From IMG/VR virus record IMGVR_UViG_3300028400_000004, positions 19,754 through 83,753 of that record: DNA of 64,000 nt; one strand, written 5' to 3'. The position numbers and the translations under genes are program-made. The notes beneath the pieces are model-generated. The model saw only the letters and a list, made by a program, of their open reading frames with translations, had not been told where the DNA came from and searched no databases. Shown one piece after another: positions 3,571 through 58,999 of the stretch (positions are counted from its first letter, which is position 1; each line of letters starts with the position of its first letter). Source of the stretch: a virus.

Positions 3571-4590
3571 ATGGCAAAAAAAATTAATGTATATGATGGT
3601 ACTAACTGGTTAACACTTCCAGGTTCATCCGGCGAATATACCGAGGAAGCTGCGACTACTGACGATACTGTATTTGGTGCTACTTTTAGTTCTAATGAGT
3701 CAACACTTATTACTTGGTCTGTGAGTGCTAATGCATACTTCAAAGGTTTTGCAGGTTATAAGGCCAAGCTATTAAAGTTCTCTGCTAGTGCTGCCAATAC
3801 CGGGGTTGCAATGACACAGGAAACCGGTCAGATTTATACTTTAGGTACCGGGCAGGCCTTTGACCGTAATTTTCCCGTTACTGTTTATGATGGTGCTACA
3901 GATGTAACTGCACAAGTAGAATGGATTGATTATTTATTTGGTCGTATTAAATTTGTTGATACCTATACTGTAACAGGTTCCGTTACTGTTGATGCCTATA
4001 TCATTAGTTTTACTACCGTCGGTACTGCTTCTTCTTTTACACTAACTCAAAATGCCGACGCAATCCAAACCACCGATTTTGCCACTGCACAGGGCAATAA
4101 TGGTTTCCATACTTATAATCCAGGCCTTCGTACTGTAAGTTTAGACCTTACCGGATTTTATACAGTTTCAAACGACTTCAGTAATATTTTACAAGGCCGT
4201 CAAGAAATTATGATTGAGGTAAATCCTGATGGAAACAGTAAGAGCATTGCTCGTGGCTACTTTAAGGCGGCCTCTCATGGGCAGAGCGGTGATGTAGGTG
4301 CTTTAGAAGAAGAAACTATTACTTTCAATCTAAATGTGCCTGACGACCAAAAGCTATATTTGCCTTTCTCTTGGCAACATGCTTCCGATACTACACTATC
4401 TCCAGCAGTAAAAGTTGTCCTCGATAACTGGCTGTCTGAAACCAAGACTAATGTTCAGTACCTATATAATGGTACAAATGGTTATCAGGGTACTAGCGTT
4501 ATTACTGATGTTAGTTTAGAATCTTCATTGGAAGGTATGAACACTTTTAGTGTTTCCTTCCAAGGCGACGGTGCTCCAACAGCTATCTAA
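3571..4590 (+). CDS. Major tail tube protein
   Basis: Beta-rich, C-terminal TFSVSFQGDG; upstream of chaperone and tape measure genes. Confidence 0.8.
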   Translation: MAKKINVYDGTNWLTLPGSSGEYTEEAATTDDTVFGATFSSNESTLITWSVSANAYFKGFAGYKAKLLKFSASAANTGVAMTQETGQIYTLGTGQAFDRNFPVTVYDGATDVTAQVEWIDYLFGRIKFVDTYTVTGSVTVDAYIISFTTVGTASSFTLTQNADAIQTTDFATAQGNNGFHTYNPGLRTVSLDLTGFYTVSNDFSNILQGRQEIMIEVNPDGNSKSIARGYFKAASHGQSGDVGALEEETITFNLNVPDDQKLYLPFSWQHASDTTLSPAVKVVLDNWLSETKTNVQYLYNGTNGYQGTSVITDVSLESSLEGMNTFSVSFQGDGAPTAI

Positions 4591-4598
4591 GGTGATCT

Positions 4599-4913
4599 AT
4601 GAGTAACGATATTCGTAATAAACTTCTAACTGATATTAAACCGGAACGTGTAAAAATTAACCTACGTGGTGTTGAAGTAGAAGTACAACAGCCAGTAGTT
4701 AAGGATATTCTTAATGCCGATACAGAGGACACGACCTTTATTATTGATATGATGGTAAGATATTGTTATGTGCCTGGAACAAATGAACGTGTGTTTGAAG
4801 AATCAGACAAGGAAATTATCCTGCAATGGCCTATGGGGGATTGGTTTACTACATTCGGCGAAGCATTTAATAAATTAGCTTCAGTAGGAAAAGACGAGGC
4901 CAAAAAAAAGTAA
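4599..4913 (+). CDS. Tail assembly chaperone (gpG-like)
   Basis: Between tail tube and tape measure; ends in slippery A AAA AAG. Confidence 0.8.
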   Translation: MSNDIRNKLLTDIKPERVKINLRGVEVEVQQPVVKDILNADTEDTTFIIDMMVRYCYVPGTNERVFEESDKEIILQWPMGDWFTTFGEAFNKLASVGKDEAKKK

Positions 4914-54610: not shown

Positions 54611-55792
54611 TTAAATATGGTTGATTTTTGCAAATTCAAAGTCGCCTTTAATGCTGTTTGAGCAATCAATATCCGTAGATAATACTAATAATTTTTTATT
54701 CAATATAGTTGCGTCGGTCTTGTCAATATAACCGTCTGTTACTAGCACATATAAATCAAAATCTTCATTTAGTTCTTTTGCGAAGACTAGTCCAATATTC
54801 ATATCAGTACCACCGCCTCCAGACACTCTTATTCCTTGAAATTTGTTTTGTAGATTATCATCATGATTGAACTCACAAGCTATTTCTGCAGACGTATCAC
54901 AAGTTATAATTTTACCACTTATCTTTGCGAATGTAGTAGCGGCAATTATTTCCATTAGTATATTAGTTAGACCCCGCTCCATAATACTTCCAGAAACATC
55001 TACAATGAAGCAAAGGTTTAATGTATTGTCATATGTTCCTGGTAGAATAAAGTCATCAGTAGATAGCGGGTTTCTAACAAAATATGAGTAGTCGTCATGT
55101 CCTTTAACAGTATTAACACACTGTGATACGATAAGTCTCCAATCTATAACTGGTGTAACAGCTTTGGTAAATAAAGACTTGATGATAGAATCCCCTTTTG
55201 AATCTCCAATAGCAGATTCAATGGACAGACCAGCTTGTATTTGTGATTTTAATTTTTCTAATGTTTCCTTATTTTTAGAATTAGAAATATTGTTCTTGTC
55301 AAATCCTTCTAAAACAGGATATTCTATGTTGGAATTTTTTGATTTTTTTAATAAGTATTCATAGATTTCATCGGTACTTCCAAAATTATCAAAGTTTTTA
55401 TTATATAAGGCATTTTTTGGGAGTTTTACTTTATTTTCTTTTAATATTTTTCCATTAATATAAAAGTCTGCTGCTATGTTATATATATTAGGAATGATTT
55501 CCGGCATAAACATTCTATCAAGATGCCCTAAAACTGCATGCATTATTTCATGCAATATGATACCTGCTATACTATCTACTTTTTCTTTTTCTATAAATTT
55601 ATCAGAAAAATAAACAACAAATTTATCATGTTCGTAAGTTACAAATGCAACATTAGTTGCATTTCCGGTCTGTTCTAAAATCCATTGTTCTTCTTTAATA
55701 TTGAAACTGTTTTCATAAATAGCATATAATAAAAATTTATATTTTAATTGTAGTTTCATTTTTGCAGCTATTAGTTTTTCCTTTAGTTCCAT
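54611..55792 (-). CDS. HExxH metallopeptidase-like + vWA domain protein (DUF2201-like)
   Basis: LHEIMH, NIAADFYIN, DVSGS MIDAS, GGGGTD and TDG motifs. Confidence 0.85.
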   Translation of the reverse strand: MELKEKLIAAKMKLQLKYKFLLYAIYENSFNIKEEQWILEQTGNATNVAFVTYEHDKFVVYFSDKFIEKEKVDSIAGIILHEIMHAVLGHLDRMFMPEIIPNIYNIAADFYINGKILKENKVKLPKNALYNKNFDNFGSTDEIYEYLLKKSKNSNIEYPVLEGFDKNNISNSKNKETLEKLKSQIQAGLSIESAIGDSKGDSIIKSLFTKAVTPVIDWRLIVSQCVNTVKGHDDYSYFVRNPLSTDDFILPGTYDNTLNLCFIVDVSGSIMERGLTNILMEIIAATTFAKISGKIITCDTSAEIACEFNHDDNLQNKFQGIRVSGGGGTDMNIGLVFAKELNEDFDLYVLVTDGYIDKTDATILNKKLLVLSTDIDCSNSIKGDFEFAKINHI

Positions 55793-56832
55793 TATTTAAT
55801 CTCCTTATATTTCCTAATAATATTCACGTCGTTGCTTAGTTTTGATAGGAAAAATTGAGGATCAAAGTTTTTACTACTATTACCAATGATTTTATAGAAT
55901 AGGATTAATTTTTCATCATCCATATAATCTAATGCTTTTCTTATATTGACAATAGCTTCGTCTTTTTCAATTAATGCGTCAATGGCATGAAAGGCTAGAT
56001 TTACAGTCAATGCAATCTCAACACCTAGGTCTGATAACTTTTTCATTTCTGAGAAGTCGCCTGATTTGATTTTATCAATATTAGGCATTTTCTTTACATA
56101 TTTTACATAGGTCATAAAATCTGCGGCGGCTCCTGGACCTACAATTCCTTGTAAATGAGTTAATGTTGGTTTAAAAATCTTTAACCAATCACTAACAAAT
56201 TCCCATGCACGAAAGGTAGGAAAGCAAGTTTCTCCAGTTCTTGGAGGTTTATATCCGAATCTAGGTGCCCAGGATAGAAACCCAATAACGTCTTTATTAA
56301 ACCCTTTTTTGATTGCGTGCGTAATAAAAGTTTTAACGCAAGGTTCAACATGGAAATGCATGTTGAATCTATTAGCAAGCGCAGGTAATAGAGGTTTGGC
56401 ACCTGTGTTATCCTTTACTCGGTTTCCTGCCGCGATAATCATTACATTGTCGGGAAGTTGTGAGAACTCGCGAAGTTCTCTATCCAGAATAACGCGATAA
56501 GCTGCATGCTGTAATGATTGCGGGGCGTTGGTAATTTCATCAAAAAATAGAATAATATTTTTTGTTTTCGATGATTTAATAATTTTTTGATACCATTCAG
56601 GATTTCCCCAAACAAATTCTTGATTTCTGTTGACGTGTGGAACACCTAGAAAAGTAGCCAAATCCATTGTGGATAGTCGAACATCCACAAGCTCCATGTC
56701 AAATTCATCCGCAAGTTGCTTTACAATGGCACTTTTCCCAATGCCAGGTGCAGAGTGAATCATCAAAGACACATTAAGCCAGTCTGATTGAATAATTTTT
56801 CTAATATCATTTTTTACATCGGCGATATTCAT
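55792..56832 (-). CDS. MoxR/dynein-related AAA+ ATPase
   Basis: PGIGKS, DVRLS, FFDEI, AAGN and ALANRF motifs. Confidence 0.88.
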   Translation of the reverse strand: MNIADVKNDIRKIIQSDWLNVSLMIHSAPGIGKSAIVKQLADEFDMELVDVRLSTMDLATFLGVPHVNRNQEFVWGNPEWYQKIIKSSKTKNIILFFDEITNAPQSLQHAAYRVILDRELREFSQLPDNVMIIAAGNRVKDNTGAKPLLPALANRFNMHFHVEPCVKTFITHAIKKGFNKDVIGFLSWAPRFGYKPPRTGETCFPTFRAWEFVSDWLKIFKPTLTHLQGIVGPGAAADFMTYVKYVKKMPNIDKIKSGDFSEMKKLSDLGVEIALTVNLAFHAIDALIEKDEAIVNIRKALDYMDDEKLILFYKIIGNSSKNFDPQFFLSKLSNDVNIIRKYKEIK

Positions 56833-58030: not shown

Positions 58031-58042
58031 TCCGTTTTAATT

Positions 58043-58359
58043 TGGTGGGCCTGCCAGGGCTCGAACCTGGAACCAAGCGATTCAGTTATCCTTATGTTTC
58101 CATAAGGGCTGGACTATATCATCACCCTCAGCATTATCTGTTAGGGTGTCGGGCGCTATTGTGGTATTACTGTGGACGCCTCCACAACCCACTAGTCTCT
58201 GCACCTTTCAGTCAGGATCGTGACTGGCTTGGCTCAGGGTTGCCATATTGCTCATGCAATTTAGGTTTCCCTGAATTCACCCGATTTTTCAACCAACATT
58301 TCTGTTGGAAGTCACCTTCAAGGATGAGTCGCTCGCTCTACCGATTGAGCTACAGGCCC
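58043..58359 (-). tRNA. tRNA-Ile2(CAU) interrupted by a group I intron (exons 58324-58359 and 58043-58082)
   Basis: Spliced GGGCCTGTAGCTCAATCGGTAGAGCGAGCGACTCAT^AATCGCTTGGTTCCAGGTTCGAGCCCTGGCAGGCCCACCA; anticodon arm of the Ile2 type. Confidence 0.9.
58083..58323 (-). ncRNA. Group I intron (IC3-like), 241 nt, no ORF
   Basis: P AAUUCAGGGAAAC, Q AACCCUGAGCCAA, R GCAGAGACUAG, S GAUAUAGUCC; terminal G; U.G at the 5' splice site. Confidence 0.93.
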
Positions 58360-58365
58360 GGAAAG

Positions 58366-58444
58366 GGCAGCGATCCGCTGGCTGGTCGGACTTCAACCGA
58401 CAGGCTAGCAACGCCGCCCTGCGCTACACAGCCAGCTTCACGCC
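58366..58444 (-). ncRNA. Putative tRNA-like ncRNA, copy 2 (about 79 nt)
   Basis: GCUGGCUG/CAGCCAGC stem; T-arm-like GUCGG-UUGAAGU-CCGAC; ends shared with 18357-18502. Confidence 0.7.
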
Positions 58445-58474
58445 ATTAAATTTTAATTAACTCAAAGCCTCCTG

Positions 58475-58999
58475 TCAAGTGTCTATCCAGGTTTGTATAT
58501 GAATTTTTCCAGTATCTTTATATAGATTTTCTAGTAGATGATATAAATTTTTTCCACCGTCTGTTAGGTCGTTATAGGTACATATCCATTCCCCATTACT
58601 CCAACCTGTAGAACCTATTGTTACTATAGCTAAGTATGGAATAGATACTAATTTGTCTGGAGAACTTTCATTATAAAAATTAGGAAAATGTTTTTTAATT
58701 TTGTTTTTATAATGATCAGTTTCTTTGACTGAATAATTAATAAACTCTACCGTAGATAGACTTGAAATATCAATATTTGGTAATTCTTCATCAAAATCAT
58801 CACCTAAGTAAGATTCATCAAATATAATATGATTATACCCTCCAGCACATTGCATAAACCCATTATTTTCTGATTCATTAGGTACTACTACTAATCTTAC
58901 AAAGGTACCACCTTCCCCTGTAGATTCCATTTTATCTGTAGGGAATTTTACGAAACCAGAAATTGCTTTTTTGTTTCTTCGGTTCATGGTTATTACCAA
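58475..58999 (-). CDS. Hypothetical protein
   Basis: 174-aa ORF between tRNAs. Confidence 0.6.
   Translation of the reverse strand: MVITMNRRNKKAISGFVKFPTDKMESTGEGGTFVRLVVVPNESENNGFMQCAGGYNHIIFDESYLGDDFDEELPNIDISSLSTVEFINYSVKETDHYKNKIKKHFPNFYNESSPDKLVSIPYLAIVTIGSTGWSNGEWICTYNDLTDGGKNLYHLLENLYKDTGKIHIQTWIDT

Follow-up and report, generated by a model that had tools for sequence, protein, structure and literature searches.

A group I intron splits a putative tRNA-Ile2(CAU) gene of a phage directly after the anticodon

Introduction

Which tRNA is encoded at a phage locus where the two halves of a tRNA(CAU) gene lie 241 nt apart, and what is the sequence that separates them? A tRNA-Ile2 has the anticodon CAU and reads AUA once C34 has been converted to lysidine by TilS. 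The locus in question is situated in a window of 64,000 nucleotides, the whole stretch of DNA analysed here, which is part of the IMG/VR virus record IMGVR_UViG_3300028400_000004. An initial annotation, made from the letters of the window, had proposed a tRNA-Ile2 gene interrupted by a compact self-splicing group I intron.

In a 2014 review (PMC3984707), all phage group I introns then known resided in protein-coding genes, though phages encode many tRNAs. The portion of Devoto et al. (2019; PMC6784885) that was consulted describes introns in tRNAs of Lak megaphages and reports them as the first such case. Those introns also interrupt phage tRNA genes, but they are called 'enigmatic' in that portion, with no intron class named, whereas the intron of the window is a clear group I ribozyme. 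Among the open-access papers and bioRxiv preprints searched, no report of a phage tRNA gene interrupted by a group I intron was found. For bacteria, Williams (2020) defined the class 'Ile2.5Ug' for Azoarcus-type insertions between positions 36 and 37 of tRNA-Ile2(CAU).

Results

The tRNA(CAU) gene and its splice junction

The gene extends from 58359 to 58043 on the minus strand and comprises two exons and a 241-nt intron, the cloverleaf being complete once the pieces are joined (Table 1). The 5' exon reads GGGCCUG-UA-GCUC...GAGC-G-AGCGA-CU-CAU (58359-58324) and the 3' exon AA-UCGCU-UGGUU-CCAGG-UUCGAGC-CCUGG-CAGGCCC-A-CCA (58082-58043). Insertion takes place between tRNA positions 36 and 37, that is, after the anticodon. 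Only the junction CAU/...G/AA combines a U at position -1, a G at the end of the intron and an anticodon loop of 7 nt, and the anticodon is therefore read as CAU. This CAU junction is common to the tRNA(CAU) homologues that were spliced. Contigs of other organisms from the same metagenome, which carry an intronless tRNA(CAU), stop aligning at 58324, the predicted 5' splice site, and realign on the 3' side at 58073-58076, while the letters in between differ. Apparent 'joints' across the intron in contigs of the two DNA runs were discarded as intronless tRNA(CAU) genes of other organisms, not spliced products.

Table 1. Coordinates of the features of the split tRNA gene, numbered as in the window.
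Feature	Position	Strand	Remarks
5' exon of the putative tRNA-Ile2(CAU)	58324-58359	-	Acceptor 5' strand, D arm, anticodon-stem 5' strand, CU-CAU
3' exon	58043-58082	-	AA, anticodon-stem 3' strand, variable loop, T arm, acceptor 3' strand, encoded CCA
Promoter-like site TTGACA-17-TAAAAT	58450-58478	-	About 90 nt upstream of the tRNA 5' end; consensus match
Group I intron, 241 nt, without ORF, omega-G at 58083	58083-58323	-	Rfam, fold, covariation
P1	58312-58327	-	Exon UCAU and intron C (58327-58323) with GGUGA (58316-58312)
P2 hairpin, GAAA loop (58302-58299)	58293-58308	-	
P5/P5a with CCUAAA (58265-58260)...UAUGG (58247-58243)	58243-58265	-	Like an 11-nt tetraloop receptor
P7 5' strand	58194-58199	-	Pairs with 58115-58111; catalytic core, pseudoknot with P3
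Extra hairpin between P7 and P3' (like P7.1)	58161-58192	-	32 nt
P3 3' strand	58149-58155	-	Pairs with 58284-58278
P8	58123-58148	-	Drawn helix, alignment, minimum-energy fold
P9 hairpin, GAAA loop (58100-58097)	58090-58107	-	

The warning that standard tRNA finders can miss such a gene was borne out, as both ARAGORN with default settings and the Rfam tRNA model reported the four neighbouring tRNAs and passed over the split one. The gene is also overlain by an ORF, a 135-aa frame at 58042-58449 on the plus strand. When introns were allowed, as had been suggested for a check, ARAGORN did recover the gene, but it placed the intron 2 nt too far in the 5' direction and labelled the product tRNA-Gln(CUG). 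Such an offset of ARAGORN has been described, together with the -1/omega rule to correct it (Williams, 2020). If ARAGORN were right, the intron would sit between positions 34 and 35, with a C at position -1 and a C at the intron 3' end; both group I rules would be broken, the U.G pair in P1 would be abolished, and the spliced tRNA(CAU) homologues have the CAU junction instead. On the grounds of the -1/omega rule and of the homologues we rejected tRNA-Gln(CUG), which we consider practically impossible.

The promoter-like sequence upstream matches 11 of 12 consensus positions and is the best in the region, a consensus match only, since the total of such sites does not exceed that in shuffled sequences. 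Between it and the tRNA 5' end lies a GC-rich, tRNA-like stretch (58366-58444, minus strand) that has a long stem, GCUGGCUG.../...CAGCCAGC, and also GUCGG-UUGAAGU-CCGAC, which resembles a T arm; this stretch would form the 5' leader of an intron-containing precursor.

Anatomy of the intron

With the Rfam model RF00028 (Intron_gpI) a match of 108.2 bits (E 3.7e-27) was obtained at 58336-58090, which covers the full model (1-253 of 253), lies well above the cut-off of 50 bits and is the only one in the whole virus record of 83,753 bases. This score and the coordinates uphold the proposal that the tRNA(CAU) is split right after its anticodon by a 241-nt group I intron. The elements that had been predicted for it were all located at the positions given: P1 with UCAU and C facing GGUGA, where U58324 and G58315 form the wobble pair at the 5' splice site, G58083 as last intron base, P2 and P9 hairpins capped by GAAA, and the P/Q/R/S elements, of which P and Q correspond to the 5' and 3' strands of P4 and R and S to those of P7. 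The CCUAAA...UAUGG motif was likewise found in P5, and its letters suggest that it acts as a tetraloop receptor.

In agreement with the expected lack of an endonuclease frame, an ORF scan detected no ORF of at least 40 aa wholly inside the intron (58083-58323); a 40-aa frame at 58082-58204 reaches one base into the 3' exon and is without a family match.

Between P7 and P3' the intron carries an extra hairpin. Its stems are GUGG/CCAC (outer) and UGUGGA/UCCACA (inner), and it contains GUAAUAC, which is near-invariant. The interval it occupies is the one where introns of subgroup IA carry P7.1/P7.2. As plain form for comparison, the 210-nt tRNA(CAU) intron of viral contig L061 was used, from which the hairpin is absent.

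By its position between 36 and 37 of a tRNA-Ile2(CAU), the locus belongs to the classical bacterial 'Ile2.5Ug' class, here in a phage, whereas the Azoarcus-type intron resides in a bacterial chromosome. The two share the tRNA-Ile2, the site after base 36, U-1, omega-G and the lack of an ORF, as well as GAAA loops on P2 and P9 and the CCUAA-/UAUGG motif in P5; the intron of the window differs in its length of 241 nt, the extra GUAAUAC hairpin and its extended P6a. GAAA loops and a receptor-like motif, as in the IC3 layout, are accompanied by a conserved 32-nt hairpin in the interval from P7 to P3', for which that layout provides no extra helices. The statement that the intron has the same architecture as that of Azoarcus holds for insertion position, periphery and absence of an ORF, but not for the extra hairpin at 58192-58161, which L061 lacks.

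Introns in phage protein genes (Kayvirus/Twort-like phages of Staphylococcus, Vibrio phage terminase, cyanophage psbA) have a similar core, with BLAST identities of 72-83% over 80-170 nt, and cluster within the same tree, described below. Their host gene yields an mRNA, however, and many of them contain endonuclease ORFs.

Fold and covariation

All 16 helices drawn, P1 to P9 and four tRNA helices, are fully paired in the window, and every pair is a standard one. The minimum-energy fold of the intron alone has a z value of -3.77, with none of 200 shuffled sequences folding as well, and recovers P2, P3, P4, P5, P6a, the extra hairpin, P8 and P9.

Covariation was assessed with 13 homologues aligned by MAFFT, an alignment that is not fitted to the structure, and sliding of the 3' partners served as control. 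Paired cells amounted to 87.9%, compared to 36-42% with slid partners, and the covariation score was 0.493, compared to 0.08-0.14. Changes on both sides were seen for 60 of the 92 pairs, and none of 500 shuffles reached any of the observed covariation measures. The signal of the intron is far beyond chance.

Considering individual helices, P7 is 100% paired and invariant in all 13 homologues, P3 is 95.6% paired with three pairs that change on both sides, and P4 is 98.7% paired, again with changes on both sides. Such changes affect all six pairs of P2 and all pairs of the P9 helices, and they occur among the 13 homologues in P8 and in the acceptor, anticodon and T stems of the tRNA. In the outer stem of the extra hairpin 98% of the cells are paired and two of four pairs show changes on both sides. 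At the splice site, U.G is the commonest pair of P1 (9 of 13 rows), and three rows are without a standard pair. Pairing was lower (46-68%) in P5a, in P6a and towards the loop of the extra hairpin; as each sequence visibly has a hairpin at these places, the low values look like slips of the alignment. The P3-P8 and P4-P6 domains, with the P3/P7 pseudoknot, are thus kept by compensatory change.

Identity of the spliced tRNA

The initial annotation had called the product Ile2(CAU), and the discriminating pairs agree with that assignment. After splicing, the tRNA would contain G1-C72, G3-C70, C4-G69, C5-G68 and C11-G24, with G3, C4 and C5 in the acceptor strand of the 5' exon and C, not A, at position 11. 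In the rules of Silva et al. (2006; PMC1635315), a G3/C70 pair rules out Met and fMet tRNAs, in which C3-G70 is normal; tRNA-Ile(CAU) typically has C4-G69 and C5-G68, which E. coli TilS requires; and A11-U24 marks the initiator. By these rules the tRNA combines a CAU anticodon and the acceptor discriminators of tRNA-Ile2 with the absence of the initiator marks A11-U24 and C1xA72. Initiator tRNA was rejected, because G1-C72 is paired and both A11-U24 and a GGG/CCC anticodon stem are missing. Overall identity is 79% to E. coli ileX, 75% to metT and 58-60% to the initiator. In the anticodon stem, four of five pairs are identical to ileX; the loop is the same too, but it is also common to tRNA-Met.

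The sequence thus points to a spliced product of the tRNA-Ile2 type, not to tRNA-Met, a reading based on the discriminators in the stems, the ileX-like anticodon stem, the dnaG-rpoD neighbourhood of a bacterial homologue and the demand for AUA decoding (both described below). The alternative is an elongator tRNA-Met(CAU), which would add capacity for AUG decoding and would never receive lysidine. Its anticodon loop CUCAUAA would look the same, the identity of 75% to metT is close to the 79% for ileX, and in Bacteroidota (L143, L148) related introns do split tRNA(CAU) genes of the Met type, which have C3-G70. Against it stand G3-C70, described as excluding Met and fMet, together with the Ile2-typical C4-G69 and C5-G68 (PMC1635315), an anticodon stem that matches ileX and not metT, the bacterial homologue in an ileX neighbourhood, and a demand for AUA that is twice that for AUG. 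As TilS determinants vary between bacterial lineages (PMC1635315), we leave some residual weight to elongator tRNA-Met but regard it as unlikely.

The phage and its demand for AUA decoding

As the initial annotation had stated, the record is that of a phage, with a major head protein, a family A DNA polymerase, a ribonucleotide reductase and a helicase; an SbcC-like protein is encoded as well. Completeness is given as 79% (IMG/VR/CheckV), and the nearest counterparts of its DNA polymerase among cultured phages share only about 30% identity with it. One run, labelled hydrothermal vent metagenome, contains the locus nearly in full and may be where the DNA of this uncultured phage came from, and a second vent study provided pieces that are 94-97% identical, including part of the intron (58126-58276). 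When near relatives with an intronless allele at the same locus were sought, megablast of 14 kb against phages gave no match, and neither the downstream DUF7296 protein nor the ATPase, each used to search for related loci, led to a confirmed relative.

The ORFs on either side of the tRNAs yielded no endonuclease family, and a homing endonuclease gene inside or beside the intron, as expected of a mobile intron, was looked for without success. At a distance of 2.3 kb, a 393-aa ORF (54611-55792, minus strand) corresponds to 'HNH endonuclease' in PHROGs (phrog_1314); Pfam finds in it DUF2201 metallopeptidase-like and VWA-like domains, and the PHROGs name is probably misleading for this ORF.

The phage genome has 33% G+C, and AUA accounts for 44% of its Ile codons. 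With 37.3 per 1000 codons AUA is about twice as frequent as AUG (18.2 per 1000). The other four tRNAs of the record are Thr-UGU, Arg-UCU, Lys-UUU and Leu-CAA, the first three of which read A-ending codons. The replication block and the structural block both contain genes rich in AUA, and only a few genes avoid the codon, such as that for the major head protein, where none of 24 Ile codons is AUA. Use of AUA is two-sided: it is low at 271-1458, 3571-4590 and 55792-56832, with the genes for the major head protein, a 339-aa neighbour and the ATPase at 0-3 AUA per 1000 codons, and reaches 40-85 per 1000 in most other genes. From this distribution it seems that the host reads AUA poorly and that the codon is kept out of the most highly expressed genes. 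No support was obtained for a gating of AUA decoding by splicing, for AUA is heavily used in replication and in structural genes alike and there is no early/late split to gate.

Related introns in phages and bacteria

A split tRNA(CAU) with an intron at the same junction and with the extra hairpin is present in seven records of cultured jumbo phages and annotated in none of them. Five are from Klebsiella (Muenster, RCIP0023, phiKp_21, KP13-7 and OU509535) and two from E. coli (Turkey5 and TH47). Like the window, these phages have a tRNA-Ile2-like gene inside a tRNA array, interrupted at the same insertion site. Their introns are 230-231 nt long and 68-72% identical to that of the window, but the phage lineage is unrelated. 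In Muenster and Turkey5 a gene for an HNH endonuclease follows shortly downstream, whereas the window is without one. These are free-standing genes (L002:2024-2569 in Muenster and L003:1825-2529 in Turkey5), located downstream of the split tRNA(CAU), and their products may make the locus mobile, along with its ORF-less intron. For phage CBB, too, an HNH gene has been noted where a tRNA gene ends (PMC5259590). The split-tRNA unit of Turkey5 had no match in 5,426 complete E. coli genomes, and the ileX gene of E. coli is uninterrupted.

Prokaryotic genomes, one per species, were scanned with a motif that spans P7 and the extra hairpin, and 18 loci were obtained. They include tRNA-Ile2-type genes in four marine Gammaproteobacteria, as well as Met-type tRNA(CAU) of Bacteroidota, tRNA-Arg(UCU) of Vibrionaceae and tRNA-Leu(UAA). 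The marine gammaproteobacterial carriers are Alteromonadaceae bacterium Bs31, a Congregibacter MAG and two other MAGs, with the intron at the chromosomal ileX locus. The best bacterial homologue, from Alteromonadaceae bacterium Bs31 (L151), reached 116 bits with nhmmer over exons and intron, and its split tRNA has dnaG and rpoD upstream, which are also the neighbours of ileX in E. coli K-12. Like the other ileX-locus introns of Gammaproteobacteria, it aligns with the window over the full length of exons and intron (93-116 bits for the group); these introns agree with that of the window in architecture, extra hairpin included, and in the junction, at an identity, judged by inspection, of only about 65-70%.

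In Vibrionaceae (Photobacterium and Vibrio; L152, L154, L157) a chromosomal tRNA-Arg(UCU) is split between positions 34 and 35. In Bacteroidota (Cytophagales-like; L143, L145, L148, L153) a Met-type tRNA(CAU) is split after CAU, and ARAGORN labels it Gln(CUG). The introns of both groups belong to the same family as that of the window and possess the extra hairpin.

When IMG/VR contigs, some of which may be cellular in spite of being listed as 'viral', were scanned with one P7 motif, at least 119 loci were found. Among the matches listed, at least 43 were called by ARAGORN as intron-split tRNAs, which after -1/omega correction were mostly Leu-UAA, with CAU, Lys-UUU, Lys-CUU, Arg-UCU and Asn-GUU also represented. 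Searching viral contigs with the junction pattern CGACTCATC...GGTGACTT yielded mostly chance matches, and only L136 was tRNA-like.

Some of these loci differ in the place of insertion. The closest intron of all (73% identity; L015:6866-7109, IMG/VR 3300042882_001461) is not located in an anticodon loop, and the same applies to L072 and L033. The flanks of L015, ...GCGGGUUCAAAU / intron / ...CCCGCCACCUCCA, resemble a T arm split in its T loop, the known site of group I introns in tmRNA; ARAGORN made no tmRNA call at this intron, on a contig that has 13 tRNA genes. Another IMG/VR viral contig (L092:3464-3797) carries a tRNA-Lys(UUU) with an intron between positions 34 and 35 that is very similar to that of the window (114 bits), and with exons that resemble the Ile2 exons of the window, and just downstream, at about 4050-4830, ARAGORN detected a second split tRNA, Lys(CUU), with an insert of 685 nt. 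In Vibrio phage 1.187.O (MG592553; L005) three group I introns (340-556, 1010-1241 and 1459-1705; 75-90 bits) split the gene for the terminase large subunit, the pieces of which are annotated as separate 'terminase-like' CDSs.

In a maximum-likelihood tree of 53 introns, the Ile2 introns of jumbo phages and Gammaproteobacteria formed one clade with a support of 98/92. The intron of the window was placed outside this clade, in a neighbouring open polytomy and in no well-supported clade, and its nearest relatives among the introns compared are viral, namely the L015 intron and that in the tRNA-Lys(UUU) of L092. Introns of phage terminase genes were interleaved, and this mixed placement indicates that the intron family crosses phage mRNAs, phage tRNAs and bacterial tRNAs. 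The intron phylogeny that had been suggested as a check resolved the clade of jumbo-phage and gammaproteobacterial introns, but not a bacterial or phage affinity of the intron in the window. The proposal that phages may carry tRNA introns between hosts is consistent with the distribution over gammaproteobacterial chromosomes and phages of Klebsiella and E. coli, but neither donor nor direction follows from the tree.

Discussion

Taken together, the sequence data make it very probable that the locus is a working phage tRNA-Ile2 gene, split between positions 36 and 37 by an ORF-less self-splicing group I intron. Transcription would start at or near TTGACA-17-TAAAAT and produce a precursor with a leader of about 80 nt. 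The intron would then fold, and sequence and covariation show that its guide GGUGA pairs with the exon end UCAU, placing U36 in the U.G wobble. By the established group I mechanism, free guanosine would attack after U36, G58083 would subsequently occupy the same site, and joining of the exons would create the loop CU-CAU-AA. Since pairing of the guide with the 3' exon (P10) amounts to at most 2 bp, it is probably the anticodon stem of 5 bp (AGCGA/UCGCU) that keeps the exons together and aligned, a role for which the work of Zaug et al. (1993) on Anabaena pre-tRNA, as listed in PMC3984707, provides the basis. Because C34 would be inside P1 until splicing, TilS of the host could act only afterwards. 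RNase P would trim the 5' end, CCA is already encoded, and the spliced tRNA would supply AUA decoding for a genome of 33% G+C.

One might instead view the locus as a decaying relic in which the intron no longer splices and the tRNA is dead. Such a state would fit the lack of a homing endonuclease, the weak P10 pairing and the lack of a close relative of the intron (best identity 73%). It would not be expected to leave every helix of tRNA and intron fully paired, nor core strands P7, J8/7 and P3 that match columns invariant in 13 homologues; moreover, the relative from another sample with 94-97% identity keeps the intron in the part covered (58126-58276), and the phage has a heavy need for AUA decoding. 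We therefore judge decay to be very unlikely and retain the reading as a working gene.

As to the intron itself, it is most likely a selfish passenger with a near-neutral effect. It would have come by descent or by acquisition, either along with the tRNA gene or by insertion into it. Having no endonuclease of its own, it would now be immobile. A function of its own could consist in rate-limiting splicing that times AUA decoding, or in a split loop that shields the gene or its precursor against nucleases directed at the anticodon region. The occurrence of introns at the same site in several unrelated phage lineages speaks for such a function, and the HNH genes downstream in Muenster and Turkey5 suggest a conflict between endonucleases and their targets at tRNA loci. 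However, AUA-rich genes in replication and structural blocks leave nothing for splicing to time, no endonuclease family was found next to the tRNA of the window, and persistence is also what would be expected of a neutral self-splicing element, so that we consider an own function of this intron improbable.

A broader proposal is that phage tRNA repertoires are systematically under-counted and that introns are kept for some role at tRNA loci, which as a combined statement has a small chance of being correct. If the introns were functional, they might protect the DNA of the anticodon loop or the precursor from tRNA-directed nucleases, or they might tie the supply of rare-codon tRNAs to the GTP/Mg2+ state of the infected cell. 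The idea of functional introns can be addressed at the bench, as cultured jumbo phages of E. coli and Klebsiella carry the Ile2 case.

The bacterial tRNA-intron niche reaches into phages, as seen from the locus of the window and its relatives, and one intron family is found in phage mRNAs, phage tRNAs and chromosomal tRNAs of bacteria, which bears on the spread of tRNA introns. Because the gene is invisible to or mislabelled by tRNA finders, and seven jumbo-phage records are without its annotation, counts of phage tRNAs and arguments on codon supply miss such genes. The value of these findings lies mainly in annotation and in the pointer to bench-ready cultured phages: Turkey5 and TH47 of E. 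coli and Muenster of Klebsiella are laboratory systems in which splicing, its order relative to lysidine formation and the fitness effect of removing the intron can be studied.
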